Below are positions 6,605 through 41,517 of a stretch of 41,887 nucleotides of DNA, piece after piece. Source of the DNA: Bacteroidota bacterium (lineage in GTDB: Bacteria > Bacteroidota > Ignavibacteria > Palsa-1295); NCBI GenBank assembly GCA_021825235.1, contig JAKAIL010000003.1, positions 1-41,887 on the forward strand, in the 5' to 3' direction. How positions within the stretch are numbered: position 1 is the first letter of the stretch; every line of letters begins with the position of its first letter. The position numbers and the translations under genes are program-made. The notes under the pieces are model-generated. The model saw only the letters and a program-made list of their open reading frames with translations, had not been told where the DNA came from and searched no databases.

Positions 6605-7147
6605 ATGGCAGGAATAGGGTTCCGATTCTGGATTATCTGTGCTCTTTTGATTCTTTTCGGTTGCGCCTCGAAAGAAGATGCTCCGATGAAGGCAACGGCT
6701 GAGTCCGCGCCGGAGGCTACCACTGCAGCAACTTCCGGCGTGCTCTCGGCGACAATAGGCGGGACTGCCTGGCAGGCGACGCCAGTCTCGAGCGAAGATA
6801 ATGATGACGCAATTGCAAGCGTCGATGCAAAGAGCGGATTGGTTACGATCCGTGGGACGCGAAATTCCGGGAGCGGACCTGAACTGGTCGAGATTACCCT
6901 CGAGTCTTCGCATCCAGGGACGTACAAGCTGTTTCCGGAATTCGGTCATTTGCAGACCGCGATCTATAGCATCGGCACGGACACATCGCAAGTCTATTTC
7001 ATTCAGGAGAAGCAATCCGGCGAAGCGATGATTTCGCAATCGGATGGCCGCCGCTTATCCGGCACATTTTCTTTCGATGCACGCAATACACAGGGCAAGG
7101 ACATTCGTGTCTCGAATGGGAAATTCGATGTAACGATAAAACAATAA
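6605..7147 (+). CDS. Lipoprotein (DUF6252-like)
   Basis: Lipobox LFGC; SATIGGTAW...LSGTFSFDA...VSNGKFDV. Confidence 0.7.
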   Translation: MAGIGFRFWIICALLILFGCASKEDAPMKATAESAPEATTAATSGVLSATIGGTAWQATPVSSEDNDDAIASVDAKSGLVTIRGTRNSGSGPELVEITLESSHPGTYKLFPEFGHLQTAIYSIGTDTSQVYFIQEKQSGEAMISQSDGRRLSGTFSFDARNTQGKDIRVSNGKFDVTIKQ

Positions 7148-7230
7148 ACACTCGCTCATAAGGTTCTTGCTTCCGGCACTTACATTCTGAACAGACGTAC
7201 CTCTGCCGCTGTTGCTATAGCTCGCAGCTC

Positions 7231-8414: not shown

Positions 8415-8431
8415 ATCCCCCTAGATAAGCT

Positions 8432-9418
8432 TCACCTCGCCGCGGTAAGCAGTTCGTCCAACGTGAGGAGTGTTGCATTCCAGGTGGCCCACTCTACTGC
8501 TTGCTGAAGCGCATCTGCTGGAGCAACGCCGTTCGCAATGGCATAGGTATAGGCGGCGCCAAAAACATCGCCGGAACCCGTCGGCTCCAGGACACGCGCC
8601 ATAGGAATGGGAACGTAATGGGTCTTGTCGCGGTGGGCATCGTACAACGTCGCTCCGCGTTCCGCCCGCGTGATAATAAGCGATTGCGGGCGAAGTGCAT
8701 TACGATTCTCTTGCACATAAGCGAGCAGCGCCTCTTCCGATTGCACTTCGGGATCTCCAAACCATCGCGCTTCGAGTTCATTGACCTGAATCGAATCGAC
8801 CAGCCGGAGCCATCGCTTCCAGTCCCGTACGCCGCGCAACTCATAGCGATAGCCGCTTGCAGAATCGTCGCCGGTTACCGAAAGTCCGGCGAACACGAGA
8901 GCATGAACGTCAAGATGTATGTATGGTCTTCGTTTGGCCCGGTCCAGAACAGCTTCCAATGTTCCTATAGATACATCGTAGCCGGACATCATATTGATAA
9001 AGAGCGCGTCGAGCGAGCTTATCAATTCCGGCGTGAGTTCTCGCTCCGTGAGTGTCGGGAGTATATTCGGGCAGTTCGCTGTCCGCTCTCCACGCTCGTC
9101 ATAGACCAGGTACACGCGGTTGGTCGGAAGATCGGTGTGCCACAATCCGGCCTCGCGGTCGATATGGCGGAAGCGCGCGAGCATCGGGTCCAGGAGTGGC
9201 CGGTCCGGTTCGGCGAGCCATGTGAGCGGAACGAAATGGTCCTTGGTGCCAGCATCGTTCATCATCCGCTCCATCGCGGCATAGACGTAAAGAATGCCGC
9301 CGAGGGCATGTCGGCGCGATCCACCCTGTTGTCCCCCCGCCTGTGGGGGTGTTAAAGGGGGAGCGTCCAAATGGACGATTTCGTCAATGCAGGGCTGCCC
9401 GATAATTCCGATTCGCAC
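8432..9418 (-). CDS. PfkB-family carbohydrate kinase
   Basis: QVNELEA, ITRAERGA, EPTGSGDVFGAAY (PfkB signature 2); probable GTG start at 9418. Confidence 0.85.
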   Translation of the reverse strand: MRIGIIGQPCIDEIVHLDAPPLTPPQAGGQQGGSRRHALGGILYVYAAMERMMNDAGTKDHFVPLTWLAEPDRPLLDPMLARFRHIDREAGLWHTDLPTNRVYLVYDERGERTANCPNILPTLTERELTPELISSLDALFINMMSGYDVSIGTLEAVLDRAKRRPYIHLDVHALVFAGLSVTGDDSASGYRYELRGVRDWKRWLRLVDSIQVNELEARWFGDPEVQSEEALLAYVQENRNALRPQSLIITRAERGATLYDAHRDKTHYVPIPMARVLEPTGSGDVFGAAYTYAIANGVAPADALQQAVEWATWNATLLTLDELLTAAR

Positions 9419-9537
9419 AGCTATAGAACTCCGCAACAGCTATCTTCTATCCCAAAGAATCATCCGGGGATTCCGTGGTTCGAGCGAGTCCGGCGGAACT
9501 ATTAAGGCTGTGAGCGGTTAACGTTCGTAGTTTGTCA

Positions 9538-10095
9538 ATGAAAAAACGCCTGTTGTCGCTTTTAGTGCTCGCCGCGAGTCTTTTTGCCTGTACTGCAAGT
9601 GCGCAAGTATCGGTGCATACGCCGCTGGAAGGAATCGTTGTGCGGCTCCATGCCATCCGGTTGAATGGAAGGGCGGACACATTAGATAGTTCCGTACCCT
9701 TTGAATTACATGCCAGGACCGATGTGGATGGGAAATTCATGTTCGGGTATGTGCCGCCCGGCACGTATGCCTTAGGGTGTTCGTATTCGGCTTGTAACCT
9801 TGCCGTCCACAAAATCAAACGTAGCGAGAGTACTGGCGCTTTGACCGAAGGAGGAAACAATGCTTCCAATGATCCTATAATCCGAATTTCGGTCGATGCG
9901 TGCGAAGGAATGGTCTGCAAGGTGGCGGTCGCGAATATTACACCGGACGATTGGTCCGATTCGCAACCCTCCACGACGACGAGAGTTGGAAGAGATTGGA
10001 GCAATCGAATGTCCTGGCTGAAAAACGGGGGTGGCATCATTCTACGTGTGGATGAAACAAGTTCCATAATTTCGGGGAAGATAGAGATAGAATAA
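9538..10095 (+). CDS. Hypothetical secreted protein
   Basis: Signal peptide MKKRLLSLLVLAASLFACTASA; TDVDGKFMFGYVPPGTY resembles carboxypeptidase-regulatory-like beta-sandwich segments. Confidence 0.65.
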   Translation: MKKRLLSLLVLAASLFACTASAQVSVHTPLEGIVVRLHAIRLNGRADTLDSSVPFELHARTDVDGKFMFGYVPPGTYALGCSYSACNLAVHKIKRSESTGALTEGGNNASNDPIIRISVDACEGMVCKVAVANITPDDWSDSQPSTTTRVGRDWSNRMSWLKNGGGIILRVDETSSIISGKIEIE

Positions 10096-10121
10096 ATTAA
10101 GGACCAATGAGTGATGATCCT

Positions 10122-11021
10122 TTACCTAATCTTCCGCTCCAAAAACGTTCGGTTCCAATTACCAAGCGTAGCAACTGTTTCGTACGAGCTTGTTAGAAAT
10201 TCGAGAATCGCCTCATCTGGCGAAGGAAAAATGCGCACATTGTTATAGGGTAAAATAAATTCACCGAGCGTGTCATTCCAATAGGCTCCTTGGGGTCGAA
10301 GGGGAGCTTTTTCCAATCCGGGAAGTGCAGGGTAGCGGTAGGCATAAAAAGCTGGTTCGGGTAGCCGGTTATCGCCAGGCCAGAATCCGGCAGCAAAGTG
10401 CTCCTCATCGTCGCCTACGCGTGCCATGCGGCCGGAGTGGGGAGGTGCACTGCATGGGTTCCCGCAATAGCGCGAGAGGGCCAAGTCGAACGATCCCCAA
10501 TAGAATTGGACCGGGCTGCTTTTGCCTGCAAATCCGGAACGGAACTTCTCGAATATGCCAGCTACCCCCGAAAGCACCACCCAAAACCGGCCAACGGCAT
10601 TTCGATCATACGAGCGATGGAGCATATCGGTGTCGAGTGGAATCTTATTCACCATTTCCTGCGGCGCAGGACTGAGATCGATTTCAATTCCCATAGCGTT
10701 GAGGGAGGACATCAGCCGTTGATAGAATTCCGCGACAGGGCGCGGCGCCAACTCGATCCCATCGGAATTCCCGGTACTATCCATCACTTCGACGATATGC
10801 GAAATAAAATCGAAGCGAATTTCCAGAAGTCGAGAGCCGAAAGGAAGTGGCCCGGTTGTAATTCCGCGCGCCCAGATCGCAAGCGCAACGTGCCACCACT
10901 CCGCAAGCCACGGTGCAAGCGCGAGCTTTATTTTCCCAGCGATTTGTGTGTAGAGATGGAGCGTCTCGTACGTGTCAAGCCACTCAGTATAAGGCAATTC
11001 CGGCCAATAAATTGATTCCAT
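10122..11021 (-). CDS. DUF5996 (Ava_C0101-like) protein
   Basis: WPELPY..W.DT..TLHLYTQI.GKIKL, F.GKSSPV.F.WGSFDLA, GFWPG...EPAFYAY.YP, LGEFILPY. Confidence 0.85.
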   Translation of the reverse strand: MESIYWPELPYTEWLDTYETLHLYTQIAGKIKLALAPWLAEWWHVALAIWARGITTGPLPFGSRLLEIRFDFISHIVEVMDSTGNSDGIELAPRPVAEFYQRLMSSLNAMGIEIDLSPAPQEMVNKIPLDTDMLHRSYDRNAVGRFWVVLSGVAGIFEKFRSGFAGKSSPVQFYWGSFDLALSRYCGNPCSAPPHSGRMARVGDDEEHFAAGFWPGDNRLPEPAFYAYRYPALPGLEKAPLRPQGAYWNDTLGEFILPYNNVRIFPSPDEAILEFLTSSYETVATLGNWNRTFLERKIR

Positions 11022-15267: not shown

Positions 15268-17886
15268 ATGATCGCTCGGCTCGCTCTCGGATTCCTGCTT
15301 CTGCCAGCAATGGTGCTGGCGCAAGGCATGGACATGCGTAGCACGTCCAGCCAGGACTCGCTTCCCTTATTGCCGGAGGCAAAGCGATTGGTACATCCAC
15401 CCGGCGTGGCGCTCGTCCTTTCCGGCGGGGGACTCAAAGGCTTTGCCCATATTGGCGTGCTCGATGTGCTCGATTCTGCGCACGTTCCTATTGATTTAAT
15501 CACGGGTACCAGCATTGGAGCGGTGGTCGGAGGGCTGTATGCCGCCGGCTACACGCCGAAACAGCTCGAGCAATTTGCGGAGTCTATTAACTGGCCGGAT
15601 GTCCTTGGCCTAACCGGCGAATCCAATCGTTCCGAACGAACGCTTAGCGAAAAGGACATGAACCACTCGTTGCTCTCGCTACGCTTCACCGGATTTTTCG
15701 ATCCGGTCATTCCGCAAGCCATTTCGAATGGCGAACGGCTGACCATGCTGTTGAACGAAATGGTATTGGGGGCACCAGCGGGCGTTCCCCGCGATTTTCT
15801 TCGCGACCTTCGGGTTCCCTTCGTGGCTGTTACTACCGATATTGTCCATGGCACCCGCCGCCTGCTTACCCGTGGTGATTTGACGGAAGCACTCCGGGCG
15901 AGTGCAACACTGCCGCTCCGATTTAGTCCGCTGCCGATCAATACGGGTTCCACAGAGGGCGATTCTGCCATTCTGATGGATGGCGGGCTCATCTCGAACA
16001 TTCCAGCCGATGTCGCAAAGGAGTTCGGAGCGTCGCGCATCATTGTGTCCAACGCGACGGCGGGTCTCCACCCGCGTAACGAACTGAATACACCGTGGGA
16101 TGTAGCCGATCAGGTGATTACGCTGATGATGCTGCGGGAGAACGCCAAGGAACTCCGATATTCGAATTGTACCATTACCCCGGAACTTTCTGGAATCGAT
16201 GAGAACGATTATTCGAAAATTCCGGAGTTTATCGAAGCCGGTCGTGAAGCCGCGCGTGCCATGCTGCCGGAGATCGAGCGGGATATTGCAGCGGTAAAAG
16301 ATCCCACACCGCCTGCCGTACCGGAAGATACACTGTTGCCCGTGCTTCGCGCAATTCGAATGATCGGAACGCAGCACCGATATGTGGATTCCGCGGTCCT
16401 GTTCGATCGTTCCCTGCTCGACCAGCCATTACTGCGTTCCCAGAACATGAAGGCCATCGAGCAGCGAGTTCTCCAGGATTACCGGTCCCAGGGTTTCAGT
16501 TTGGTCCGAATCGATAGTGTGGTATTGCGGACAACTATTGGCCGCGCTGATTTATATGTAGATGAAGGCCACATTGGACGAATTGCCGTTCGCGGGAGCG
16601 AAAACACCGATACGGATTTTGCCTTGCGCGAAGTAGCATTTCACCCCGGTGATATTTTCCGCGCTACGGCGGGCAAACAATCGTTGCAAAATCTGACGGG
16701 TACCGGGCTATTCGATTTCGCGATTCTTCAAGTAGCCTACGATACCCTATGGCCTGGAACCCAGTATATTCGAACCGCAGATACATTTGCTTATCCGGAA
16801 GGTGCGCCATCGTTTGGGCCTTCGGTGATCCTCACCGTCCATTCGGAGAGTCCGAATGTGTTGCGCCTCGGCGTGCTGGCGGATAATGAATTCGGTGCTG
16901 AGTTTTCCGCGCAATTGGCGAACGAAAATATCAGTGGAAGCGGAATGGAATATGTGCTAACCGGAAGTATCGGTTCCCAGGCGCGGTCCGCTTCGTTGGC
17001 CTTTTCCGCGCCGCGTTTGCTGCACGGCTTCGGGGTGCTCGATGCACGCGCCTATGCTGGCTACCGTGATATTAACGCGTATGCCGTTCTTACGGATGTT
17101 ACCCAACAGAGCATCCGCAATACCGTGACGGATGTGGTGCGGGAATCGAGAGACTGGGGTATCCGCCTCCGCCTGGGTGGCCAGATCGAGCGCCTGGGTG
17201 CGCTAACCGTGGCACTCCGGGCCGAAAAGCAATCCTGGTTCAGTGTGCGCGACAGCGTGGGGGATAGCGGCTCGGACCAGGTGCGGGCACTGCGTGCTCA
17301 ATTGCTCCTCGATTCCCGCGATGATGCAAACTATCCTCATACCGGCAGTTACGTTCGCGGTTACGCAGAGACGGGCCTAACGCTGCTCGGAGTAGGAACG
17401 AATTACACGAAACTATTCGGAGAAGTAGCGCAGGCAATCCCGCTTTCTCCCCTGCATACCCTTATACCTCGGTTCCAGGTAGGCTTTGCCGATGCCGAAT
17501 TGCCCCGGCTCGAACAATTCGATTTGGGCGGCATGGAATCCTTTTATGGATTGAACGAATATGAATTGCGCGGAAAGCAGATGGTGGAAGGGAGCTTAAC
17601 CTACCAGATCGCAATCCCTCACGCTCTCTTTTTCCCGACGTTCGTCTCCGTGCGTTATGATGTGGGTGCTGTTTGGCCCGAGCCGGCTGCGATTAAATTC
17701 GAGTCCCTCTTGGACGGTATTGGCGCTCAGGTCGGAGTCAAAACGCCGCTCGGGCTCGCTCAGTTTGGAATCGGCGAGAATTTCCGCTTTGTTAAAGTAC
17801 CTGGTACGTCGCCGCTAAGGGAGCCATCGCATGTAATTGCGTGGAATGCTCCGCACTTCTACTTCTCGATCGGTTCCCGGCTGTAG
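15268..17886 (+). CDS. Patatin phospholipase-POTRA-Omp85 barrel fusion (PlpD/type Vd-like)
   Basis: Signal peptide; LSGGGLKG, GTSIG, DGG patatin motifs; POTRA-like VDEGHIGRIAVRG...LTGTGLF; barrel ending FYFSIGSRL. Confidence 0.85.
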   Translation: MIARLALGFLLLPAMVLAQGMDMRSTSSQDSLPLLPEAKRLVHPPGVALVLSGGGLKGFAHIGVLDVLDSAHVPIDLITGTSIGAVVGGLYAAGYTPKQLEQFAESINWPDVLGLTGESNRSERTLSEKDMNHSLLSLRFTGFFDPVIPQAISNGERLTMLLNEMVLGAPAGVPRDFLRDLRVPFVAVTTDIVHGTRRLLTRGDLTEALRASATLPLRFSPLPINTGSTEGDSAILMDGGLISNIPADVAKEFGASRIIVSNATAGLHPRNELNTPWDVADQVITLMMLRENAKELRYSNCTITPELSGIDENDYSKIPEFIEAGREAARAMLPEIERDIAAVKDPTPPAVPEDTLLPVLRAIRMIGTQHRYVDSAVLFDRSLLDQPLLRSQNMKAIEQRVLQDYRSQGFSLVRIDSVVLRTTIGRADLYVDEGHIGRIAVRGSENTDTDFALREVAFHPGDIFRATAGKQSLQNLTGTGLFDFAILQVAYDTLWPGTQYIRTADTFAYPEGAPSFGPSVILTVHSESPNVLRLGVLADNEFGAEFSAQLANENISGSGMEYVLTGSIGSQARSASLAFSAPRLLHGFGVLDARAYAGYRDINAYAVLTDVTQQSIRNTVTDVVRESRDWGIRLRLGGQIERLGALTVALRAEKQSWFSVRDSVGDSGSDQVRALRAQLLLDSRDDANYPHTGSYVRGYAETGLTLLGVGTNYTKLFGEVAQAIPLSPLHTLIPRFQVGFADAELPRLEQFDLGGMESFYGLNEYELRGKQMVEGSLTYQIAIPHALFFPTFVSVRYDVGAVWPEPAAIKFESLLDGIGAQVGVKTPLGLAQFGIGENFRFVKVPGTSPLREPSHVIAWNAPHFYFSIGSRL

Positions 17887-20614: not shown

Positions 20615-20735
20615 TGCGTGTTCCAATAATTTTTACAGGATGGGGAAACATGCGCGATGGAAACGTTGCGATGTCCTCCCATCAGCCATAATGATTGAGT
20701 CAAGCATCCACGGAAGGGGCGATTTACTATTTAAC

Positions 20736-21713
20736 ATGGAACAGAACGAAGCAACAAGCAGAAGAAAATTTTTGAAGGTCGCAGCCGCTGCCGGGGCTGT
20801 CATCGCGACCGGTGCCGGACTTAAGAAAGCATTCTCAGCGGATAATCCATCCGGCAGCGATTCGCTCTCGGCAAGCTCTTCCCCAGCCGATACTTCGGCA
20901 TCCGGAGCCGATACTGCCGCGGCTGGTGAGAAGCTAAAAGTTCTTACACCCAGCGGTACGCTTCTCGAAATTGACAGCGCCCATGCCTATGCTACGCAGC
21001 ACAAGCCGGTATCCAATGAAGAAGCACGTATCGGCATACCAGGCCGAAAGTTCGTGATGGTCATTGATCTCTCGAAGTGCGATGGCTGCCGGAAGTGTAC
21101 GAAGGCGTGTCAGAAAATGCACTTTACCCCACCGGACCGCGAGTGGATCAAGGTCTTCGAAATGAAGGATTCGGAAGAAACCGGATCTTACTGGATGCCG
21201 AAGCCCTGCTTCCATTGCGATAATCCTCCCTGCACGAAAGTCTGCCCCGTTGGAGCAACGTTCAAGCGGGAAGATGGCATTGTTCTCATCGATAATACCC
21301 GTTGCATTGGCTGCCGCTTCTGTATGGCGGCCTGCCCATACTCCACGCGGTACTTTAATTGGGAGCACCCTGCAGAAATTCCCGCCATGGCGGATATTCC
21401 GTACACGCCGGAACAAGGGTATCCGCGCCGCGTGGGAACTGCCGAAAAGTGCGATTTCTGTCCGGACATGATTCGTGAAGGGCGCATGCCGGCCTGTATC
21501 GATTCCTGTGATATGGGCGCACTCTATTTCGGCGATGAGAACGAAGATGCGGTAACCAATTCCAATGGTGAGACGGTCCGCTTAAGCACGTTGCTCGATC
21601 AGAACGCGGGATACCGTTTTATGGAAGAATTGGGAACGAAGCCACGCGTCTATTATCTCCCGCCCAAGAATCGCCGTTATCCGGAACCCGTGCATGCAAC
21701 GGTCGTCGGATAA
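20736..21713 (+). CDS. Tat-exported 4x[4Fe-4S] protein (NrfC/PsrB/DsrO family)
   Basis: SRRKFLK Tat motif; CDGCRKCTKAC, CFHCDNPPCTKVCP, CIGCRFCMAACP, KCDFC...PACIDSC. Confidence 0.92.
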   Translation: MEQNEATSRRKFLKVAAAAGAVIATGAGLKKAFSADNPSGSDSLSASSSPADTSASGADTAAAGEKLKVLTPSGTLLEIDSAHAYATQHKPVSNEEARIGIPGRKFVMVIDLSKCDGCRKCTKACQKMHFTPPDREWIKVFEMKDSEETGSYWMPKPCFHCDNPPCTKVCPVGATFKREDGIVLIDNTRCIGCRFCMAACPYSTRYFNWEHPAEIPAMADIPYTPEQGYPRRVGTAEKCDFCPDMIREGRMPACIDSCDMGALYFGDENEDAVTNSNGETVRLSTLLDQNAGYRFMEELGTKPRVYYLPPKNRRYPEPVHATVVG

Positions 21714-21766
21714 TACCATCGTACAGTAGAGTAGAACGGTACCATCAGCCGCCACAAACCTTTATT

Positions 21767-23272
21767 ATGGAACACATTACAAAACAGAAGAACGGAGTAG
21801 CAATGGCTCTTGCCGGAGGAGAAACGGGCGAGAGCCGTGGAGATTTTCCACTTCCGACTGGACCGGGCATCGAAAGCATACGCCAGCATTATTTGCGCCC
21901 CATTGCGCCGGGTAATTTTGGGACGCGAAGCAAGTATTGGATTGCTGGGCTCCTTGTTGTTATGGCATGGGGGCTTTATGCCTACATCCATCAACTACAG
22001 ATGGGTCTCGAAGCCACGGCGATGCGGAACTATGTGTCATGGGGGCTCTATATTGCTACCTTCGTCTTTATTATCGGCATCAGCCATTCGGGCACTCTGG
22101 TCTCAGCCATCCTCCGGGTGACGAATCAGGAATGGCGGCGACCGATTACGCGATCGGCGGAGCTTCTGACGGCCGTCGCACTTATGTTCGGTGGGCTAAT
22201 GCCCATCATCGACATGGGGCGTCCGGACCGCGTGCTCAACCTGATCTTTTACGGACGTATTCAATCCCCCTTACTGTGGGATGTTTTGTGCGTCACGACT
22301 TACTTTACGGGAAGTGTGATGTTCTTGTATTTGCCGATGATCCCGGACATTGCACTGGCGAAGAAGCGGTTTGCTACAACCGGCTCGAAGTTTCGGCTTT
22401 GGGTCTACGATAAGCTTTCGATGGGCTGGCAGGGAACTCCGGAGCAATGGCGCCGGCTCGAACGCGCCATGCGAGTCATGACCGTCATGATCATTCCGAT
22501 CGCGGTTTCCGTACACACCGTGATCTCCTATATCTTTGCAATGACCTTACGGGCAGGATGGGATAGCACCGTGTTCGGGCCCTATTTCGTCGTCGGTGCA
22601 CTGTATTCTGGTTCCGCCGGCGTGATCCTGGTAATGGCGGCATTCCGCAAAATCTATCACCTGGAAGAATTTATTACTCCGCGCCATTTTGACTTAATGG
22701 GGAAAATCGTGCTATCGCTCACGATGATTTATGCCTATTTCAATCTCAATGAATATTGGATCCCAGCGTATAAAATGGCCTCCGGGGAAGCGCCACTGCT
22801 GCACTCGCTCTTCTCCGGTAACCTTTCTACTCTCTTCTGGACCTTACAGTTCGGGACGGTGCTGATTCCCATCATTATCCTGGCCACTCCACGTGGTCGC
22901 AGGCCTACCCTTTCGGTTATTGCTTGCATCATCATCGTGGTCGGTGCCTGGGTGAAGCGATACGCCATTGTCATTCCCGTGCTTGAGCATCCATTCCTTC
23001 CGATGCAGCATGCCCCGCAATCGTGGACGCATTACTTCCCCAATTGGGTGGAATTCTCCGTTGTTGGTGGTATGCTGGCCGGAATATTCTTAGTCCTTAC
23101 CCTCTTTTCGAAGTTCTTCCCCATTAGTTCCATCTGGGAAGTGGAAGAAGGCGTCCACCGATCGGAACATTCGGCGCACGATCACTCATCCGGTCAATCG
23201 CACCTTGCAGCAAATGGGAAGGACACTAATCACAAACACATTCCTGCAGTCGAGGAGGCCTTCGCGCAATGA
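21767..23272 (+). CDS. NrfD/PsrC-family quinone-interacting membrane subunit (ActC/QrcD-like)
   Basis: WGLYIATFVF.IGISHSGTLVSAIL, WRRPITR.AE, DMGRP.R, SPLLWD, SVHTV.S; many TM helices. Confidence 0.92.
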   Translation: MEHITKQKNGVAMALAGGETGESRGDFPLPTGPGIESIRQHYLRPIAPGNFGTRSKYWIAGLLVVMAWGLYAYIHQLQMGLEATAMRNYVSWGLYIATFVFIIGISHSGTLVSAILRVTNQEWRRPITRSAELLTAVALMFGGLMPIIDMGRPDRVLNLIFYGRIQSPLLWDVLCVTTYFTGSVMFLYLPMIPDIALAKKRFATTGSKFRLWVYDKLSMGWQGTPEQWRRLERAMRVMTVMIIPIAVSVHTVISYIFAMTLRAGWDSTVFGPYFVVGALYSGSAGVILVMAAFRKIYHLEEFITPRHFDLMGKIVLSLTMIYAYFNLNEYWIPAYKMASGEAPLLHSLFSGNLSTLFWTLQFGTVLIPIIILATPRGRRPTLSVIACIIIVVGAWVKRYAIVIPVLEHPFLPMQHAPQSWTHYFPNWVEFSVVGGMLAGIFLVLTLFSKFFPISSIWEVEEGVHRSEHSAHDHSSGQSHLAANGKDTNHKHIPAVEEAFAQ

Positions 23273-23925
23273 AAATTCTAAGATGCTCTCTACTATTCGT
23301 GCTCGCACTATTCCTGTTCAGCGTGCATGTACGCCGCTCTCTGGCCATGGACTCTATGGGCGGTATGGCGATGGATTCCGCAGGCGCCAGCACCGCCGCT
23401 GTGAGCGCGAGTGGCGCCGGCGATTCCTCCGCTTCCAATGCCAAACTTACGCTCGCTGTAACGGATGGCGATACGGTTTGGAACGTCCAGGCGAACTTTA
23501 TCGGCCCGGATTCAACCGGCAAGATCGGACCGCTCGCCAATCAGACCGTTAGCTTTTACGTCAAACGGCTCTTTGGCATCATGCCGATGCGAGACGATGA
23601 TAACACGGGAACGACGGATGATTCCGGAAACGCCGTGATTCAAATGCCGAAAAACATTCCCGGTGGTACCACCGGGATGCTCACGATCATTGCTCGTGTG
23701 GAACAAGACGATCAAACCGGTTTGGTCGCCGCCAGCGATTCTGGACATTGGGGGAAGGTCGTTCCTCTCGAGGCTAATCCATTCCCACGCGCGCTGTGGG
23801 AGCCCAATGCGCCCATTTCCATGATCATCGTTTTTGTCATTCTCTTCGGTGGCGTATGGTCCACCTACGGATTTGTAGTAACTCAACTTGTAACCATTAA
23901 AAAGGAACACCAGAATGAAGCATAA
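23269..23925 (+). CDS. Hypothetical periplasmic protein with C-terminal TM anchor
   Basis: Signal peptide, Met-rich start, beta-rich core (TTDDSGNA), C-terminal hydrophobic helix; ATGA-coupled to the nrfD-like gene. Confidence 0.8.
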   Translation: MKILRCSLLFVLALFLFSVHVRRSLAMDSMGGMAMDSAGASTAAVSASGAGDSSASNAKLTLAVTDGDTVWNVQANFIGPDSTGKIGPLANQTVSFYVKRLFGIMPMRDDDNTGTTDDSGNAVIQMPKNIPGGTTGMLTIIARVEQDDQTGLVAASDSGHWGKVVPLEANPFPRALWEPNAPISMIIVFVILFGGVWSTYGFVVTQLVTIKKEHQNEA

Positions 23926-24343
23926 ATCAGTATCCTCCCTTAGTGCTATCTTTCTTTCGATAGCCATTGCGGGGTTCATCGTTGCGTTTATTGTGACGAA
24001 TTCACCTGCAAGCAATGCCGGGAAATGGATGGCGCCAGCCTCCGCGAATAACATGAAAAATCCGGTCGCGAAGACGCCGGTCTCCATTCAGGACGGCAGG
24101 AAAATATTCAATAAAGAATGCAGTTCCTGCCACGGGCCAAAAGGTTTGGGCAATGGCCCAAAGGCGGGCGACCTGAATATTCAACCCAGCAACCTTGCCT
24201 CCCATTTGGTACAGAGCCAAAGCGATGGAGCGATCTTCTGGAAGATCACCACGGGCAATAAGCCGATGCCAACGTTTCGGACGGCCTATTCCGATCAAGA
24301 CCGTTGGAACCTTGTGAACTTTGTACGCACGCTGGGAAAGTAA
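23915..24343 (+). CDS. Monoheme class I cytochrome c
   Basis: CSSCH; SDGAIFWKITTG..PMP.F (distal Met); N-terminal hydrophobic segment. Confidence 0.9.
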   Translation: MKHKSVSSLSAIFLSIAIAGFIVAFIVTNSPASNAGKWMAPASANNMKNPVAKTPVSIQDGRKIFNKECSSCHGPKGLGNGPKAGDLNIQPSNLASHLVQSQSDGAIFWKITTGNKPMPTFRTAYSDQDRWNLVNFVRTLGK

Positions 24344-24428
24344 ACGGAAGCATTTATCTCATTTCCGCGCATCCACAGCCCCCTTTACTGTCAATGCGCA
24401 ACCCTGTTCATTTATCAGAACTACTACC

Positions 24429-25697
24429 ATGAAACGATTCATCACGATTCAATTACTCCTGCTGGCAAGCGCGGTTCTGCTGTTGGTCTCCGTAACCAAA
24501 AGCAACGCCATGCCGATATTCGCTCGCAAGTATGGCTTCAAATGTTCGTATTGCCATACCACGATTCCGCGTTTGAACGAGACGGGATTTCGGTTCCGGG
24601 CCGCGGGCTTCCGGCTGCCAAGCGATATCGGTGGGCCACAACCCGATGAAAATTACCAACTCGGTAACTATCTTGCAATAGCGCTTACGGGTGCACTGTC
24701 TAATAACACAACAAATCCTCCGGGCGCAGCTTCTACTTCTACCTTTTCCATGGGACTCGATCAGATTATGGTGGCCGCGGCTGGTGCGATGACCCCGGAG
24801 ATGTCCGGCGATGTACATTTGATGTACGATCCAATGAGCGGCACATTCGGGCTCGATAAAGCCTATGCGCAATACACCACCGGTGCCGAAAATGGATTCT
24901 TCACTGCCAAGCTGGGCGTGCTCGATCCGTTCCAGGGCTATCAGGCCTCGGATGAGGCGATGGGGCTTTCGGATCCACTCATAAAAGCCGACGCTGCGGT
25001 TGGACCCAATGGTTCCACGCTCTTCACGTCCGGTGGGCTTCCACAATTCGGATTGGAACTTGGATATACCTGGCCGACGACGGCTGTACGAGCTTCGGTC
25101 CTGGGTGGCGTGTTTAATTCCAGTGGCCAACCAATGCCCGTCGAGGGAACCGGTGGTAAACCGGTGGGACCCTCACAGAATAGCGTTGATTTTCAACTCT
25201 TCGTTACGCAGTTCCTGAATCAGGAAGGGGCCGGACTTTCGGGGTACTTCTACATGGGCAGTATCGACCTTCCGACCGGAGTTAGTTCCAGTTCGCCCGA
25301 TAGCAATGTCTTTCAGGATAAGTTCATTCGCTATGCGATCTACGGAACGCTTCCCATCTCCTCGTTTCAGGTGCTGGCCGGTTGGCAACAGGGAACCGAT
25401 AATAGCTGGGACTCCACGACCTTTGCGAAGGGTAGCGACTTTTCGAGTTCCGGATTCTTTGGTGAACTCGATTACCAGCTCGCTCCGCTTCTGGGCGTGG
25501 GCGTCCGCTATGATCAATTCGATCCCTGGACGAAGCAATCCGATAATCTAATAAACGGTGTGGCTGGCTTTGTCAATTATGCCGTTGGGGACGGGCTCCA
25601 ATTCGTTGGAGAATATCAGTCACTTACTACTCAGCAAGGCCCCGGACAAAAAGAGACCGACGGTAGCTTTGGAATCAACGTGATCTGGATTCACTAA
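24429..25697 (+). CDS. cyc2: Cyc2-like fused monoheme cytochrome-porin (copy A)
   Basis: After the signal peptide: AMPIFARKYGFKCSYCHTTIPRLNETGFRFRAAGF, matching the Cyc2 AxPxFAR[Q/K][T/Y]-x3-CxxCH-x3-PxL motif; beta-strand-rich remainder. Confidence 0.88.
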   Translation: MKRFITIQLLLLASAVLLLVSVTKSNAMPIFARKYGFKCSYCHTTIPRLNETGFRFRAAGFRLPSDIGGPQPDENYQLGNYLAIALTGALSNNTTNPPGAASTSTFSMGLDQIMVAAAGAMTPEMSGDVHLMYDPMSGTFGLDKAYAQYTTGAENGFFTAKLGVLDPFQGYQASDEAMGLSDPLIKADAAVGPNGSTLFTSGGLPQFGLELGYTWPTTAVRASVLGGVFNSSGQPMPVEGTGGKPVGPSQNSVDFQLFVTQFLNQEGAGLSGYFYMGSIDLPTGVSSSSPDSNVFQDKFIRYAIYGTLPISSFQVLAGWQQGTDNSWDSTTFAKGSDFSSSGFFGELDYQLAPLLGVGVRYDQFDPWTKQSDNLINGVAGFVNYAVGDGLQFVGEYQSLTTQQGPGQKETDGSFGINVIWIH

Positions 25698-25752: not shown

Positions 25753-25786
25753 ATGGGAGATGCCTGAGAGGCATCTCCCATTTTTT
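25753..25786 (+). terminator. Intrinsic terminator of operon A
   Basis: ATGGGAGATGCCT-GAG-AGGCATCTCCCAT followed by TTTTT. Confidence 0.9.
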
Positions 25787-25809: not shown

Positions 25810-26417
25810 ATGAAACAAGAACGTTCTCTTTCGACCCAGCCGCTCGTACCGTTGATCTGCACAATCCGGAACAGCCGCGTCATGTTCGAGGCGGACTTAG
25901 CCAGATTGTATGGCGTTAGCACAAAGCGTTTTAACCAAGCATTTAATCGAAATCGTCTCCGATTTCCGGAGGATTTTGCATTTCAGCTTTCAGCTGTAAG
26001 AATGTAAGATACTTCCATTAGAAACACAAGAGCTCCTTTTGAGGTCGCAATTTGCGACCTCAAACAACGAGAAAGAAAATAAGGGGATGCCGACGCTATC
26101 TGCCCTGGGCCCTCACCGAGCACGGCGCGCTTATGGCCGCAAATATTCTTCGAAGTAAACGTACTCGCGAAATGAGTGTCTTTATCATTCGAGCGTTCGC
26201 AAAACTACGCGAGGAAACTGCTGCAAATGCGGTAATCCTCAAACGCTTTGCGGAGATTGATAGGACATTGCTTGTGCATGAAAAGGAGCTGCGAAAGCTT
26301 TATCAACAGCTCCGTCCACTGCTGGCTCCTGGCGAAGTGTCATCCAAACGAAGAATCGGATTTCGAACTCCCGGTGAAGAGGGCTCTCTCACATCAAGCA
26401 GGGATGGGCGAAAGTAG
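25810..26417 (+). pseudogene. ORF6N (KilA-N-like) DNA-binding protein, frameshifted
   Basis: IRNSRVMFEADLARLYGVSTKRFNQA..RN..RFPEDFAFQLS, then LRSQFATS, then RRYLPWALTEHGALMAANILRS and KRRIGF, not in one continuous frame. Confidence 0.85.
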
Positions 26418-27092: not shown

Positions 27093-28535
27093 TTACTTTT
27101 TCAGGCTCTGTAGGAACGCTACGAGCTCATGGAATTCGCTATCGGAAACATCGACGGGGTCCATACCGGCATCGCTGGCCTTTTTGGTCGGATGAAGTAG
27201 GCGATCGACCAGCGTATCGGGTCCGAGTTTGTCCGCGGCGCCAAGAAGCGCTGGGGCTTTATCGGTTCCCTCACCATTCTCGCCGTGGCATTGGTCGCAC
27301 GAGTTATCCAGAAAAACGCCTTTACCGGCTTTTGCCGCCGGACTCAACGCGGCGGCAGCATTGGCAGTGGAACCACCAACCACTTCCGGCACAAACGGGG
27401 AAGTCATAAACGCGTTCGCGAGAGAATCCTGCTTGGTAATCTGTTTTGCAACTGAGGGATCGTTCGTATCCTGATAGTTGCTTTGCCATCCAAGAAAGAG
27501 AAGCGCGCAAAATACGATCGCAAAGGAAAACGATGCGACGGGCCGCTTCCACGGTCGTCGTTCCAAGCGGCGATCCAGGAACGGTAACACCACAAGTATG
27601 AGTGCAATGATACCGGGGATCACCACAATGCCAATTACGGAATATGCACCGCTCCAATATTTCAGCCATTGGAACATCGGAAGGTAATACCACTCGGGCC
27701 GAGGAAGGAAGGACGTATCGGCGGGATTTGCCTTCGGCCCAAGACCTACCGGATAAAGGTAGGCGAGCAATCCAAGCGTGCCAATCAGGACCGTCGCAAA
27801 TGCGATATCCATCAGGACCTGCTTGGGGTAAAATTGCTCCGCCTTTTGCTGTGGCATAATCGGATGTTCGGAGACCGGTCCAGCGCTTCCGGCTTTGCGG
27901 AAGAGATAGACGTGAAGCCCCACGAAGAGGAAAATGCACGATGGAATCAGAAATACGTGAGCGACGAAGAAACGGGACAATGTAAGTGTTCCCATCTCCG
28001 TGCCACCCCGCAGGAGCTCCTTAATCCAGTTCCCAACGAGCGGTACTTCGCCGGCAATGTTTGTCCCAACCGCCGTAGCGAAATAGGCTTTCTGGTCCCA
28101 GGGAAGTAAATAACCGGTGAATGCCATGAGGATCACCAGGCCAAACAGTCCCAAACCTGAAAGCCATAGAATTTCCCGACGCCCTTTGTAGGAGCCAAAG
28201 AAATACGTTTGCCCCATGTGGACGAGGAGCGTTACAACCATGGCACTCGAACCATACGAGTGCAGGCTCCGAAGGAACGATCCAGCAGTAACGACCTTCG
28301 TAATGTATTCGATCGTCGTATGGGCGTGATCGGCGCTCGCGACATAATACATCGCAAGAAAGACTCCGGTCACAATCTGCGAAAGCAGAATGTAAAGGAG
28401 TCCCGAGCCAAAGACGTACGACCACCGCGCGCCACCGGGGATTGGTTCATTCAGCGCTTCATCGGCCAGATGAAAGATTCCCGTTCGTTCATCGAGCCAG
28501 CGCATGAAGCGTAAGCTGCGTAAATGCTTTCTCAT
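27093..28535 (-). CDS. Cytochrome b (b + subunit IV) fused to a C-terminal monoheme cytochrome c
   Basis: RSLH...LLVH and AH-x14-H heme b ligands, FTGYLLPWDQ, PEWY Qo motif, C-terminal CDQCH. Confidence 0.93.
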   Translation of the reverse strand: MRKHLRSLRFMRWLDERTGIFHLADEALNEPIPGGARWSYVFGSGLLYILLSQIVTGVFLAMYYVASADHAHTTIEYITKVVTAGSFLRSLHSYGSSAMVVTLLVHMGQTYFFGSYKGRREILWLSGLGLFGLVILMAFTGYLLPWDQKAYFATAVGTNIAGEVPLVGNWIKELLRGGTEMGTLTLSRFFVAHVFLIPSCIFLFVGLHVYLFRKAGSAGPVSEHPIMPQQKAEQFYPKQVLMDIAFATVLIGTLGLLAYLYPVGLGPKANPADTSFLPRPEWYYLPMFQWLKYWSGAYSVIGIVVIPGIIALILVVLPFLDRRLERRPWKRPVASFSFAIVFCALLFLGWQSNYQDTNDPSVAKQITKQDSLANAFMTSPFVPEVVGGSTANAAAALSPAAKAGKGVFLDNSCDQCHGENGEGTDKAPALLGAADKLGPDTLVDRLLHPTKKASDAGMDPVDVSDSEFHELVAFLQSLKK

Positions 28536-29206
28536 GCCATCACCTCCTTCGTTTTGACGAGGTTACGGAATGATTGATAGCGCACCTTCAGATGACCCTC
28601 TTCGATTTTGGATTCGAGTGAATCCATATCTCGCGGCGGGGGCCCTGAAATCAGTTTGCCGGTTGCCGCAAACTTACCACCATGGCACGGGCATTTGAAT
28701 TGGTGATCGTCATCGACATACTTAACCGAGCAGCCCAAGTGTGGACAGACCGCCGTTAGCACCGCCGGTTGGCCGTCTGCGCCTTTGATTACGTACACCA
28801 CCTTTTCGGAATTGACTTTTCTCCAACCATCGAGTTGGGTAATCGAGATCGTCTTCTTTTGTGGTGTGCTCAGGTCACCCAAATCATCCACGGAACCCAG
28901 GTCGGTCCATTCCGTTTCCTGGGAAACCCGGAGCAGCGGATCGATCGCGAACCGAAACAGCGGTACGGAAAGCGCGCCTGCTACTCCCACGGTTCCGATT
29001 CCGAGGAACCATCCGAGGAACCGGCGCCGCGCCACAGACTCCGCCGCACCGAGCGTGCCACCGGCGGCCGTATGTTCGTGCCCGGAAGTCATCTCTAAAT
29101 GCGAAGCATCATGCGCCGAGCGCCCATTCGTTGGAATGGGCGCCCGTTGCTGGATTTCGTTGGATGACCGATTATCCGTTACTTCTTCTTTTGACTTTCG
29201 AGCCAT
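28532..29206 (-). CDS. Rieske [2Fe-2S] subunit (true start may be ATG 29092)
   Basis: ARRRFLG Tat motif plus TM helix; CPHLGC and CPCHGGKF boxes; GPPPR. Confidence 0.93.
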   Translation of the reverse strand: MARKSKEEVTDNRSSNEIQQRAPIPTNGRSAHDASHLEMTSGHEHTAAGGTLGAAESVARRRFLGWFLGIGTVGVAGALSVPLFRFAIDPLLRVSQETEWTDLGSVDDLGDLSTPQKKTISITQLDGWRKVNSEKVVYVIKGADGQPAVLTAVCPHLGCSVKYVDDDHQFKCPCHGGKFAATGKLISGPPPRDMDSLESKIEEGHLKVRYQSFRNLVKTKEVMA

Positions 29207-29520
29207 GCCGTCAGTGTGTTAAGTTCTTCATCGGAACCAGTGAACTTTTTCATGTGCTTTTTGCCATGCTGTTCCACTTCCTTGTGCAGCCACTGCTTCA
29301 TCCAGTCCTGCGTATGGCGGTCGCCAACGTCGGAAAGATCGGGTGGTGGATACTTCGCACCTTCCGGCGGCTCGCTGGTATGATGAATACCCTGCGAGGA
29401 GATCGAATGGCACTTGTTGCACCCGTTATCGAGGAAAAGGCTCTTTCCCGAATTGCTTTTGAGTGTGGCGCTCGTGAGTAAACCGGTCGCGAGCAAACCT
29501 AAGAATAGTGTTTTCTTCAT
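29179..29520 (-). CDS. Small periplasmic monoheme cytochrome c
   Basis: Signal peptide MKKTLFLGLLATGLL; CNKCH; PPDLSDVG; KKHMKKF. Confidence 0.9.
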   Translation of the reverse strand: MKKTLFLGLLATGLLTSATLKSNSGKSLFLDNGCNKCHSISSQGIHHTSEPPEGAKYPPPDLSDVGDRHTQDWMKQWLHKEVEQHGKKHMKKFTGSDEELNTLTAWLESQKKK

Positions 29521-29543
29521 CGAATTATTATCCTTCCTTTGAT

Positions 29544-30899
29544 TTATTGGAACCAACTGACACGCAGCGCAAAGGCATTATTCTGTGCTGTTCCCAGCAA
29601 GCTCTCTCCATTCGAAGTCGGAGTCTTTGTGCTCGTGGCAGCGTAGGAGGCGGTGAGCGAGAACCCATCGCCGAAATTATAGTCCACGTAGCCCGTAATC
29701 ACGTTAATGTTATCGATGCTGGCGTTCGAATTGTCTGGCGTTACTGCATCGTAGCGCGCGCCAACGCCGATGAGGTCCGTAACCGGATAATCGGCTTCGC
29801 CGAACCAGCCAGAGCTGCTGATATCCGGGCCATACGAGAAGGTTTTCAGAGCCCAGCTATTATCGGAACCGTGTTCATAGCCGCCTTCCAGAAGGACCTT
29901 CGCGACGGGAATCGGGTAACTCGCATAGATCGCATAGCGGCTGAATTTATTTTGCCAGAATTCCGAATCGACATTGGTCGAAGCAGAGCCCGTGTTAATG
30001 TCGGCGTTTCCAAGGTAGTACGCCGCGGAAATACCGCCACCATCCTCGGTCAGGATATAGTTGGCCCAAAACATATAGTCAAAGGAATTAGCGGAGGGGG
30101 CTTGCCCTGCACCGACGCCGGTCGGTTTACCGGCCACGGCTGCCGAAGGCTTTCCGCCGGCATAGGTATAACCACTCAGGACTTCCGCATGTACCGTCGC
30201 TTCACCGAAGACATATCCGAGATCGATTCCCATATTGGAACCAGTCAGTCCGGTGTACGTGGGCTTTACCCCGCCATTCTGATAATTATACAAGCTGATT
30301 GCATACCCCGAATTCATCTTCGGGCTGCCACTCCACCCACGATCGGAGCCGCCGTAGCCCATGAAGGTATTAAGCTTTCCAATGCGTGCCGAGAACCAGG
30401 AATCTTCGGTACCCGTGTAATAACCAACAGAAGCCGTCGAAACTTCGAGGCTGCCATTGGTGCTGAACCCGAGTTCCGATTCTGATGAGATATTCGGCGT
30501 TAGAGCGCCGAATATGGCATAGATAGAACCACCGGTGAAGGCCATGTTCATGTTGCTAACCGAGGGCGATCCGGATGCCGCCGCGGTTGCCGACGACTGA
30601 TTCACGGCAAAATTCAGCCTGCCCGCGAAGTAGTCCCCGATGTTATACGATGCTTGTTTCTGCCCGATTTCGTCCGGCATCCGGTAACCGGCTGCACGGA
30701 ATTTCCAGCCGAATTCGTTCAGTTTCGGAATTACGTCATGGCAGCTGCCGCAGCCAAGGCCGTACTTCCGCGCGAAATTAGGCATCGCGCTGGCCGTGTG
30801 TAGTATGGGAATTACGGGCGATGCCGAAATCGCGAAGAGTGCAAGCAGGAGCGCCATCACCCGTAGTGTCTGTTGGAGTTGTAAGCTATGAGAACGCAT
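29544..30899 (-). CDS. cyc2: Cyc2-like fused monoheme cytochrome-porin (copy B)
   Basis: AMPNFARKYGLGCGSCHDVIPKLNEFGWKFRAAGYRMP Cyc2 motif after the signal peptide; beta-barrel-like body ending ALRVSWFQ. Confidence 0.9.
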   Translation of the reverse strand: MRSHSLQLQQTLRVMALLLALFAISASPVIPILHTASAMPNFARKYGLGCGSCHDVIPKLNEFGWKFRAAGYRMPDEIGQKQASYNIGDYFAGRLNFAVNQSSATAAASGSPSVSNMNMAFTGGSIYAIFGALTPNISSESELGFSTNGSLEVSTASVGYYTGTEDSWFSARIGKLNTFMGYGGSDRGWSGSPKMNSGYAISLYNYQNGGVKPTYTGLTGSNMGIDLGYVFGEATVHAEVLSGYTYAGGKPSAAVAGKPTGVGAGQAPSANSFDYMFWANYILTEDGGGISAAYYLGNADINTGSASTNVDSEFWQNKFSRYAIYASYPIPVAKVLLEGGYEHGSDNSWALKTFSYGPDISSSGWFGEADYPVTDLIGVGARYDAVTPDNSNASIDNINVITGYVDYNFGDGFSLTASYAATSTKTPTSNGESLLGTAQNNAFALRVSWFQ

Positions 30900-31383: not shown

Positions 31384-31515
31384 GGACTACGGACAGTGGA
31401 AAGTGGACAACGGATAGTGGATAATGGAAAGTACCGTGGACAACGGATAGTGGATAGTACCGCCTGAGTAGTCTCCATTATCCACTATCCACTATCCACT
31501 TTCCACTTTCCACTA
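31381..31515. repeat. Inverted arrays of degenerate 7-bp tandem repeats
   Basis: (AGTGGAT/AACGGAT/AGTGGAA)n followed by (TCCACTA/TCCACTT)n. Confidence 0.9.
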
Positions 31516-40221: not shown

Positions 40222-41517
40222 ATGATAAGGTCATCATTTACACTTCGTTTCACAATCGCATTTTTGCTCCACTCCACTTTGTTTGCTCTTTTCACATCCA
40301 ACATACGTGCGCAGATGATTTCCGGTAGTTGGGAGGATGCGTCCACAATAGGGTTTACCGCGCGTTATGGCCTGACATCCAATGTAATCGGTGGGAAGAT
40401 ATACGTTTTTGGAGGGATTTCTAGTGGTTCTGTTGTAAATACACTGGAAGTGTTTGATCCCGCAACCGATTCTTGGAGTACCCCCGAAACCGCAGGTCTT
40501 GCATCGCCTCGAGCGTTTCACACTGCTTCGGAAGTCGGTGGCAAGATCTATATTATAGGGGGGATAACGCAGACATCCTCAACCTATCCTGATAGCATGG
40601 TTGATGTATTCGACCCAGCTACGAGTAGTTGGAGTTCACTGGTCACATCGGGTACCTTTATTCCGCGTCTCTGGCATTGTGCAGCAGCCGTCGGAAACAA
40701 AATATATGTGTTTGGGGGGGATACAACATTTCAAGCTGTTCCAACAATTACGAAAACGGTCCAAGTCTTAGACCTCGCGACGAAGGCCTGGAGTACCCTC
40801 ACTACAACCGGCAAATTCATTCCTCCATTCCTGTCCACCTGCAACGTGATTGGCAGTAAAATATATTTTACAGGTGGTGAGGATTCCACTGGCAACCATA
40901 GCCTGAGCACCTACGAAATTTTTGATCCGGTAACAAATTCATGGACCATCCCTGCGACTGAGGGTAGTATGGTTGCTAGAGGCGGACAAGCTTCAGCCTA
41001 TGTGGACTCCAATTTAATAGTTTTTGGCGGCTTCGGCGCATCATCTGACATTTCTTCAACGCAAGCCCTTTATATATCAAAAAACGAATGGTATACCCCC
41101 TCATTCGGAGATGGTTTCATTGCACGCGATGCATTGACTGCAAGCACTGTAAACAATGAAATTTTCACAATCGGTGGTGAGAATAATGCTAGCGTAGCGC
41201 TTAGTATTAATGAAATGCTTACGTTGAAAAGTGACATTGTCACTCTAAACAACGCAGATTCAGCATTGGACATATTTCCCAACCCCGCGACAAGCATTCT
41301 CCATATCCTTTGCAACGTAGCTCCTATAAGGGAGATTGTAATTTTTGATGCGCTCGGTAGAAAGGCCCTTGATATCGAAGAGAAAGTGCATTCTATATCG
41401 ACCGACGGGCAACAAGACTACGCCGTTGACCTCCAATCATTATCACCTGGAAATTATTTTATTGAAATTCGAACTAACGAGGAGAATTCTTGGCAGCGTT
41501 TATCCATTTTACGTTAG
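40222..41517 (+). CDS. Kelch-repeat protein with T9SS C-terminal sorting domain
   Basis: Repeated KIYxxGG...FDPxTxxW blades; CTD IFPNPA...IFDALGR...LSPGNYFIEI. Confidence 0.9.
   Translation: MIRSSFTLRFTIAFLLHSTLFALFTSNIRAQMISGSWEDASTIGFTARYGLTSNVIGGKIYVFGGISSGSVVNTLEVFDPATDSWSTPETAGLASPRAFHTASEVGGKIYIIGGITQTSSTYPDSMVDVFDPATSSWSSLVTSGTFIPRLWHCAAAVGNKIYVFGGDTTFQAVPTITKTVQVLDLATKAWSTLTTTGKFIPPFLSTCNVIGSKIYFTGGEDSTGNHSLSTYEIFDPVTNSWTIPATEGSMVARGGQASAYVDSNLIVFGGFGASSDISSTQALYISKNEWYTPSFGDGFIARDALTASTVNNEIFTIGGENNASVALSINEMLTLKSDIVTLNNADSALDIFPNPATSILHILCNVAPIREIVIFDALGRKALDIEEKVHSISTDGQQDYAVDLQSLSPGNYFIEIRTNEENSWQRLSILR

Follow-up and report, generated by a model that had tools for sequence, protein, structure and literature searches.

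Cyc2, a haem-porin of the outer membrane, is a widely used metagenomic marker gene of microbial iron oxidation. In the standing model of iron oxidisers, electrons pass from Cyc2 to Cyc1 and on through alternative complex III (ACIII) or a bc1 complex to quinone. For anaerobic Fe(III) respiration in Acidithiobacillus ferrooxidans, a proposed chain runs from the quinone pool through bc1, cytochrome c and rusticyanin to Cyc2. Cyc2 genes have also been reported in Ignavibacteriales genomes from FeGenie screens. In the accessible part of the open full-text literature, which excludes subscription journals and figshare supplements, no description was found of an operon that joins cyc2 to Rieske/cytochrome b or NrfD-type genes, and bc complexes go unmentioned in the accessible text of Tamre and Fournier 2025. 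The locus described here lies on a stretch of 41,887 nucleotides from an uncultured Bacteroidota bacterium (assembly GCA_021825235.1, contig JAKAIL010000003.1, positions 1 to 41,887), referred to below as the window. A minus-strand unit of four genes (30899-27093) encodes a Cyc2-type haem-porin (Cyc2A), a soluble cytochrome c, a Rieske protein with a twin-arginine (Tat) motif and a cytochrome b-cytochrome c fusion. Judged from its sequence, this operon looks like a complete electron wire between the quinone pool and dissolved external iron. Outward flow, from menaquinol to Cyc2 to a dissolved high-potential acceptor, is tentatively favoured over uphill oxidation of Fe(II), as a leaning that falls short of an expectation.

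The operon and its borders are made up of the following features:

29544..30899, minus strand: cyc2A, a fused monohaem cytochrome-porin of 451 amino acids (aa), recognised from the list of open reading frames (ORFs), published motifs, AlphaFold2 and Foldseek
29179..29520, minus strand: small periplasmic monohaem cytochrome c of 113 aa with the haem site CNKCH (Pfam Cytochrom_C, 1.3e-08)
28532..29206, minus strand: Tat-exported Rieske iron-sulfur protein of 224 aa with CPHLGC and CPCHGGKF (Pfam Rieske, 1.6e-12)
27093..28535, minus strand: cytochrome b (b6 part and subunit IV part) fused to a class I cytochrome c, 480 aa
27043..27071, minus strand: intrinsic terminator, a 12-pair stem and T run, 22 nt past the cytochrome b stop
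31391..31511, no strand assigned: inverted repeat with 44-nt arms and 7-nt GTGGAWA-like units, directly 3' of the RND pump gene

A preliminary description of this DNA had joined cyc2 to the Rieske and cytochrome b genes in one transcription unit. The layout agrees with an operon: the four genes lie on the same strand, with tight junctions and a single terminator. The 113-aa monohaem cytochrome c between cyc2 and the Rieske gene, absent from that earlier list, is the fourth member. There is a 23-nt gap between cyc2A and the cytochrome c gene, an overlap of up to 28 nt between the cytochrome c and Rieske genes, and a 4-nt overlap between the Rieske and cytochrome b genes. The start of cyc2A was placed at the ATG at 30899, which gives a signal peptide. 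Pfam and NCBIfam name the three genes that follow, and the 480-aa product of the last carries Cytochrome_B (7.2e-44), Cytochrom_B_C (4.3e-11) and Cytochrom_C (2.8e-08) in one chain. The terminator is a strong one and ends the operon. About 500 nt separate cyc2A from an upstream RND efflux operon, and the inverted repeat in this interval probably divides the pump operon from the cyc2 operon. A promoter scan returned sites no more numerous than those in shuffled controls. From the gene packing, the single terminator and the conserved order, the four genes would be transcribed together.

The published description of Cyc2 includes a signal peptide, one CXXCH, the motif AXPXFAR[Q/K][T/Y] before the haem site, PXL four residues past it, a length of at least 365 aa and a 16-stranded porin domain resembling OprO and OprP (Keffer et al. 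2021, PMC8406198). Cyc2A reads AMPNFARKY-GLG-CGSCH-DVI-PKL, with AMPNFARKY at 38-46, CGSCH, its single CXXCH, at 50-54 and PKL at 58-60; a beta barrel comes next. Its hydrophobic N-terminus, judged by eye, serves as the signal peptide. The second Cyc2 of the window, Cyc2B, likewise has AMPIFARKY and CSYCHTTIPRL. Residues F42, R44, C50, C53, H54 and L60 of Cyc2A are invariant across 35 aligned relatives, and the AlphaFold2 model built on these relatives (pLDDT 83.5, pTM 0.79) contains 16-17 DSSP strand segments in its 451 aa. In a Foldseek search with the model, the best matches were 16-stranded porins; OprP (2o4v) came seventh and OprO (4rjw) twentieth. The ESM Atlas returned mostly unnamed Acidobacteriota clusters, together with one cluster in which 20% of the members have Porin_O_P. 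Cyc2A has no Pfam or NCBIfam match, a PDB sequence search with it gave 0 matches at E up to 1, and none of its 86 homologues bears the name "Cyc2" in its source record. By the published motifs and the predicted fold, Cyc2A is a Cyc2-family protein, and the earlier identification of the porin is upheld by its motifs, its length and its predicted 16-stranded porin fold.

In the Rieske protein, residues 60-64 form a Tat motif (RRRFL), residues 154-159 are box I (CPHLGC) and residues 172-179 are box II (CPCHGGKF), the last as the preliminary description had read it. Gly and Phe here replace the Ser and Tyr of the high-potential type (CPCHGS.Y). The closest solved Rieske domains are 8hn2 (CPCHGAKY), 9rk4 (CPCHGSKY) and 5cxm (CPCHGAEF). 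The accessible part of a structural paper gives +160 mV for Chlorobaculum tepidum (Ser to Ala) and +135 mV for PetC3 (Ser to Ala, Tyr to Phe), as opposed to about +300 mV for high-potential forms, and attributes the difference to hydrogen bonds from the Ser and Tyr; these values agree with the earlier statement that losing these residues lowers the potential. With both Gly and Phe in box II, the potential of the operon protein is predicted to lie near or below +135 to +160 mV, and by these residues it is a Rieske protein of the low-potential (menaquinol) type. That assignment stands, although it is not special to the operon. A second Rieske protein of the genome (contig C323) has CRCHGGKF, again without Ser and Tyr, and the quinone genes, whose inspection the preliminary description had proposed, are those for menaquinone: two futalosine-pathway matches were found in this 92% complete genome, and none for MenA, a ubiquinone hydroxylase or a bd oxidase. 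Because the second Rieske is alike and futalosine genes are present, the low-potential type is the norm of the organism rather than a special trait of the operon. The phyla of the related Cyc2 carriers are likewise known for menaquinone, and box II has both Ser and Tyr in only one of the 20 Cyc2-neighbouring Rieske matches listed at 45 bits or more. The small cytochrome c has a signal peptide and no lipobox Cys; its identity to the cytochrome c domain of the fusion protein is 28%.

The features that had been noted in cytochrome b all recur upon closer inspection. The haem-ligand pairs are H-x13-H at 92-106 and the b6-like H-x14-H at 193-208, PEWY is intact at 280-283, and the fused CDQCH (413-417) lies inside a Pfam Cytochrom_C domain at 401-479. 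An alignment with Rhodobacter cytochrome b places a one-residue insertion in helix D of the operon protein. The position of the haem ci Cys of b6f and Firmicute-type complexes, which we take to be near the start of helix A, corresponds to WSYVFGSG (38-45); no Cys occurs in residues 1-60, so a covalent site for haem ci is lacking. A "PEWY-cyt c" clade of cytochromes b with a C-terminal class I cytochrome c has been described, spread by gene transfer among Acidobacteria, Planctomycetes, Nitrospira and others, with Leptospirillum belonging to the c-fused clade with the motif PAWY (Kao and Hunte 2014, PMC4122944). The operon protein has the four haem-ligand His in helices B and D, PEWY and the C-terminal class I cytochrome c of this clade; the c-fused complex is therefore of a type already known.

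A quick maximum-likelihood tree of 48 cytochrome b sequences was drawn from the loci fetched for this analysis, with ORFs below 300 aa or 120 bits omitted, among them the organism's own partial copy on C323; supports are SH-aLRT values without bootstrap, and a long-branch warning applies. In this tree, the operon cytochrome b groups with six other Cyc2-linked sequences labelled Ignavibacteriota or Bacteroidota (support 99). A Thermoanaerobaculia sequence joins next (95), followed by three Pyrinomonadaceae-type sequences (100). A long, fully supported branch separates the c-fused group from 25 short cytochromes b of the organism's own class. Four Cyc2-linked Acidobacteriota cytochromes b fall among the short forms, which indicates that at least two cytochrome b lineages are linked to Cyc2. 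Among 401 genomes of the window's phylum, its own included, 158 gave a cytochrome b match (E up to 1e-30), the listed matches all being at most 39% identical, and seven gave a Cyc2-like match. Examination of 29 cytochrome b loci from this sample showed 25 unfused proteins of 354-361 aa and four of 463-477 aa, with no Cyc2 gene within the 1.5-kb flanks of any.

Linkage of Cyc2 to quinol-oxidising modules recurs in related organisms. A contig scan with patterns from 16 alignment rows yielded 59 related loci; the patterns are specific to the subfamily, so that classical iron oxidisers could not appear. A Rieske protein (at least 55 bits) and/or cytochrome b (at least 100 bits) is encoded within 6 kb of the Cyc2 gene in 20 of the 59, on the same strand in 19 of these 20, and an iron-sulfur (FeS) protein with an NrfD-type subunit lies beside Cyc2 in another six. 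Cyc2 is thus joined to either module in 26 of 59 loci from three or four phyla. The other 33 have neither; 18 of them have less than 4 kb of flank on at least one side, and 15 have at least 4 kb on both. By record label, the bc-linked loci make up 9 of 34 from Acidobacteriota, 4 of 7 from Ignavibacteriota, 3 of 7 labelled Bacteroidota and 4 of 6 from Gemmatimonadota. Gene order differs: the bc genes are downstream of cyc2 in Ignavibacteriota and upstream of it in Gemmatimonadota and Pyrinomonadaceae. One locus of a Kapaibacterium record (L013, about 3800-10230) has two tandem Cyc2 paralogues, which precede two small cytochromes c, a Rieske gene and the c-fused cytochrome b. A relative whose chromosome is complete (locus L007) shares the operon of the window. 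A link to "Candidatus Acidiferrum" was dropped, as that name is used for a Ferrovaceae genus and not for the Acidobacteriota records among the loci.

Twenty-four carrier genomes were searched for respiratory and carbon-fixation genes: the window's own, 17 of the 20 bc-linked and all six FeS/NrfD-linked (L026, L039 and L060 were left out). All 24 have a strong COX1 match, that is, a haem-copper oxidase, and RuBisCO was found in none of the 24. The citrate-synthase family (PF00285) has one match each in G000 and its complete relative G001, both of ordinary size (403 and 459 aa), and no ATP-citrate-lyase-like protein was seen with PF00285 in either. PF16114 (ATP-citrate lyase) had no match in four genomes and was silent in the control genomes as well.

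The window contains a second Cyc2 operon, of five genes, which is convergent with the first and 1.4 kb from it:

20640..25697, plus strand: second Cyc2 operon, with a terminator at 25753-25781
20640-21713, plus strand: Tat FeS protein, DsrO/QrcC-like
21767-23272, plus strand: NrfD-type membrane subunit
23269-23925, plus strand: uncharacterised 218-aa protein
23915-24343, plus strand: monohaem cytochrome c
24429-25697, plus strand: cyc2B, 37% identical to Cyc2A (E 1e-79)

A Kapaibacterium record (L018) has all five of these genes, at 62-77% identity. This operon does not encode ACIII, as it has no pentahaem ActA, no molybdopterin-like ActB part and no full ActC-F set; a full ACIII (ActA-F) is found elsewhere in the genome (contig C23). 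ActA is the only ORF of the genome with at least three CXXCH motifs; no multihaem route across the outer membrane was seen. The separate short Rieske/cytochrome b pair (C323) and an A-type oxidase are also encoded away from the operon. On contig C230 (12554-16336, locus L003) there is another Cyc2-like gene, the third of the genome (413 aa, PLFAHKY...CFTCH), with genes for a dihaem and a monohaem cytochrome c after it and, before it, one for a 297-aa protein that has a C..H..M motif, recognised by eye, and a CarboxypepD_reg domain. A cupredoxin reading of this 297-aa protein was not confirmed, since Pfam gave CarboxypepD_reg only. A weak and divergent COX1 match on contig C336 (locus L068, 281-2783; 420 aa, 38 bits) was not counted as an oxidase; the neighbouring genes encode a DUF1858/DUF2249 protein and an FeS-assembly protein, and a role as a respiratory oxidase is improbable. 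Between the two Cyc2 operons, two short adjacent ORFs (25810-26417) have weak similarity to ORF6N (Pfam E 0.009) and may be a broken ORF6N gene.

If electrons run outward, the inner-membrane Rieske/cytochrome b complex, with its c1-like haem fused to cytochrome b, would oxidise menaquinol in an energy-conserving Q cycle. Electrons would then be handed to the small soluble cytochrome c in the periplasm and leave through the Cyc2 haem-porin in the outer membrane. Transfer among these three parts would match their gene content, tight packing and conserved linkage. The acceptor would most likely be Fe(III), in acidic, iron-rich water where oxygen runs short, and the host would be an oxygen-respiring bacterium with no sign of autotrophy. 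The operon of the FeS protein, NrfD, cytochrome c and Cyc2B would form a second branch of the same kind. The wire would be reversible in principle and may also accept electrons from Fe(II).

The energetics depend strongly on pH. Reported potentials for Fe(III)/Fe(II) are +770 mV at pH 2 and 0 +/- 100 mV at pH 7, while menaquinone lies at about -80 mV and ubiquinone at about +90 mV. With a Rieske centre near +135 to +160 mV, outward flow needs an acceptor of higher potential, which Fe(III) would be at acid pH and not at pH 7. The measured haem potentials of Cyc2 proteins (-130, +208 and +560 mV) range so widely that they place no constraint on Cyc2A. Both partner types, Rieske/cytochrome b and FeS/NrfD, belong to classes with an established direction from quinol to cytochrome c. 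The presence of a dedicated Rieske/cytochrome b copy in the operon, alongside the separate pair and ACIII, also counts for outward flow, as does the lack of a multihaem route in the genome. The habitat label, "mine drainage metagenome", comes from four runs of one study that contain the stretch; two of these runs may be where the DNA came from.

Several points weigh against outward flow. Every Cyc2 assayed in vitro, in the reports available, is an Fe(II) oxidase, and Fe(III) reduction has been shown for none. The haem-copper oxidase in all 24 carriers makes aerobic oxidation of Fe(II) possible, and the third Cyc2 cluster, which includes a dihaem cytochrome c, has a layout similar to that at the beginning of the A. 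ferrooxidans rus operon. At pH 7, the iron couple lies below the predicted Rieske potential; the evidence on habitat is a label alone, which does not give the pH, and Gemmatimonadota and Blastocatellia, both with linked loci, are typical of neutral soils. The operon cytochrome b has PEWY and not the PAWY reported for two acidophiles with the same type of protein.

The opposite direction would have Cyc2A oxidise Fe(II) and the proton-motive force drive electrons back through the Rieske/cytochrome b complex to menaquinone and NAD(P)H, with the third Cyc2 cluster and the oxidase as the downhill branch. This is the standing model of iron oxidisers given at the outset, and the window carries both of its partner types as operons. 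It also agrees with the in vitro oxidation of Fe(II) by Cyc2 proteins from three clusters, with the A-type oxidase and rus-like third cluster of the genome, and with Leptospirillum, where the bc complex is proposed to run in reverse and the cytochrome b belongs to the same c-fused clade. At pH 7, the climb from Fe(II) to menaquinone would be a modest 0-180 mV. Nevertheless, it would be steeper than the climb to ubiquinone, and at acid pH (+770 mV at pH 2) it would come to about 850 mV, which is not plausible. In addition, the usual purpose of uphill flow is missing, since RuBisCO occurs in 0 of 24 carriers and no ATP-citrate-lyase-sized match in 2 of 2 genomes, these being the carbon-fixation routes that were searched. 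The preliminary description had set forward flow, with Cyc2 as a reductase outlet, beside uphill transport during Fe(II) oxidation; as a provision for autotrophy, the latter is weakened by the RuBisCO result, and the former is a reading that is only leaned to. On balance, uphill flow is judged only somewhat less likely than outward flow.

Oxidation of Fe(II) might instead be downhill only, from Cyc2A through the small cytochrome c to the oxidase, with the Rieske/cytochrome b complex running forward into the same cytochrome c, possibly in a supercomplex with the oxidase. All 24 carriers have a haem-copper oxidase, they look like heterotrophs able to use Fe(II) as an extra energy source, and the domain fused to cytochrome b has a paralogue in the small cytochrome c. 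However, a shared pool of cytochrome c leaves unexplained why extra, dedicated quinol:cytochrome c modules stand beside Cyc2 repeatedly, and do so as two unrelated kinds, drawn from two or more cytochrome b lineages, across several phyla and in differing gene orders. The oxidase genes, moreover, are on other contigs. We consider this arrangement quite improbable. Still less probable is that the wire serves another substrate, such as Mn(II)/Mn(III), copper or a small redox shuttle, or a non-respiratory role in reductive iron uptake or Fe(II) detoxification. Sequence does not reveal the substrate, a part in Mn(II) oxidation has been proposed for the Cyc2 of Candidatus Manganitrophaceae, and many Cyc2 carriers are not known iron oxidisers; yet the family members tested so far, in the reports available, all act on iron, the habitat label is that of iron-rich mine drainage, and a complete energy-conserving quinol oxidase would be a heavy investment for uptake or detoxification.

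Should outward flow extend beyond this genome, aerobic heterotrophs of several soil and sediment phyla (Ignavibacteriota/Kapaibacteria, Acidobacteriota and Gemmatimonadota) would use complex III-type enzymes to feed Cyc2 as a terminal reductase of dissolved Fe(III), a generalisation that we regard as possible, if somewhat doubtful. The carriers with Cyc2 beside quinol:cytochrome c oxidoreductases are oxygen-respiring and gave no RuBisCO match. If the generalisation is true, iron respiration could conserve energy without multihaem cytochromes, and Cyc2 could not be used as a marker for iron oxidation alone. With electrons flowing out, abundant soil phyla would possess a simple way of respiring iron that has gone undescribed, and many "iron oxidiser" assignments would have to be reassessed. 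Electrons flowing in would mean the first operon-level support for the long-proposed uphill model of Cyc2, cytochrome c and complex III, extended to heterotrophs.

Elsewhere in the window, a minus-strand gene (5703-6446) encodes a 247-aa protein with a rifampin ADP-ribosyltransferase domain (Pfam Arr-ms, 3.5e-46), and a plus-strand gene (15268-17886) encodes an 872-aa fusion of a patatin-like phospholipase domain with POTRA and Omp85 barrel domains. A Kelch-repeat protein encoded at 40222-41517 (plus strand) ends in a Por_Secre_tail sorting domain of type IX secretion, which fits an organism of the Bacteroidota/Ignavibacteriota group.

Among known systems, the menaquinol:cytochrome c oxidoreductase of Chlorobaculum tepidum and PetC3 of Synechocystis provide the closest solved Rieske domains. 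Both have lost the Ser hydrogen bond, and PetC3 has lost that of the Tyr as well. These proteins feed a photosynthetic reaction centre or the thylakoid chain, and they have an unfused cytochrome b and no Cyc2 partner.

Leptospirillum, with its Cyt572-Cyt579-bc system, resembles the window in having an outer-membrane cytochrome of the Cyc2 family and a cytochrome b from the c-fused clade. The cytochrome c beside Cyc2B weakly resembles Leptospirillum cytochrome 579, at 40 bits against an NCBIfam cut-off of 280. Leptospirillum itself is an acidophilic autotroph, with the Qo motif PAWY and genes that are reported as unclustered.

In Mariprofundus ferrooxydans PV-1, Cyc2PV-1, Cyc1 and ACIII (or bc1) have been proposed as one conduit. 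The second operon of the window, in which the FeS protein, NrfD, the 218-aa protein, cytochrome c and Cyc2B are encoded together, is that idea in the form of an operon, although its FeS/NrfD module is without the pentahaem ActA and the molybdopterin-like ActB1 part of ACIII. PV-1 is an autotroph of the ubiquinone type.

The iron chain of A. ferrooxidans likewise links an outer-membrane Cyc2 through periplasmic carriers to a Rieske/cytochrome b complex (bc1, petI) and the quinone pool; it serves Fe(II) oxidation in the uphill direction, and both directions of flow through bc1 and Cyc2 have been proposed. There, cyc2 belongs to the rus operon and the pet genes form another, the quinone is ubiquinone, cytochrome c1 is a subunit of its own, and rusticyanin and a dihaem c4 are the carriers in a chain of Cyc2, rusticyanin, CycA1 and bc1. 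In the organism described here, no autotrophy genes were found in the RuBisCO search or among ATP-citrate-lyase-sized matches, and the whole wire is encoded in one operon, with a menaquinone pool, a Rieske protein of the low-potential type, a c-fused cytochrome b and a monohaem carrier.

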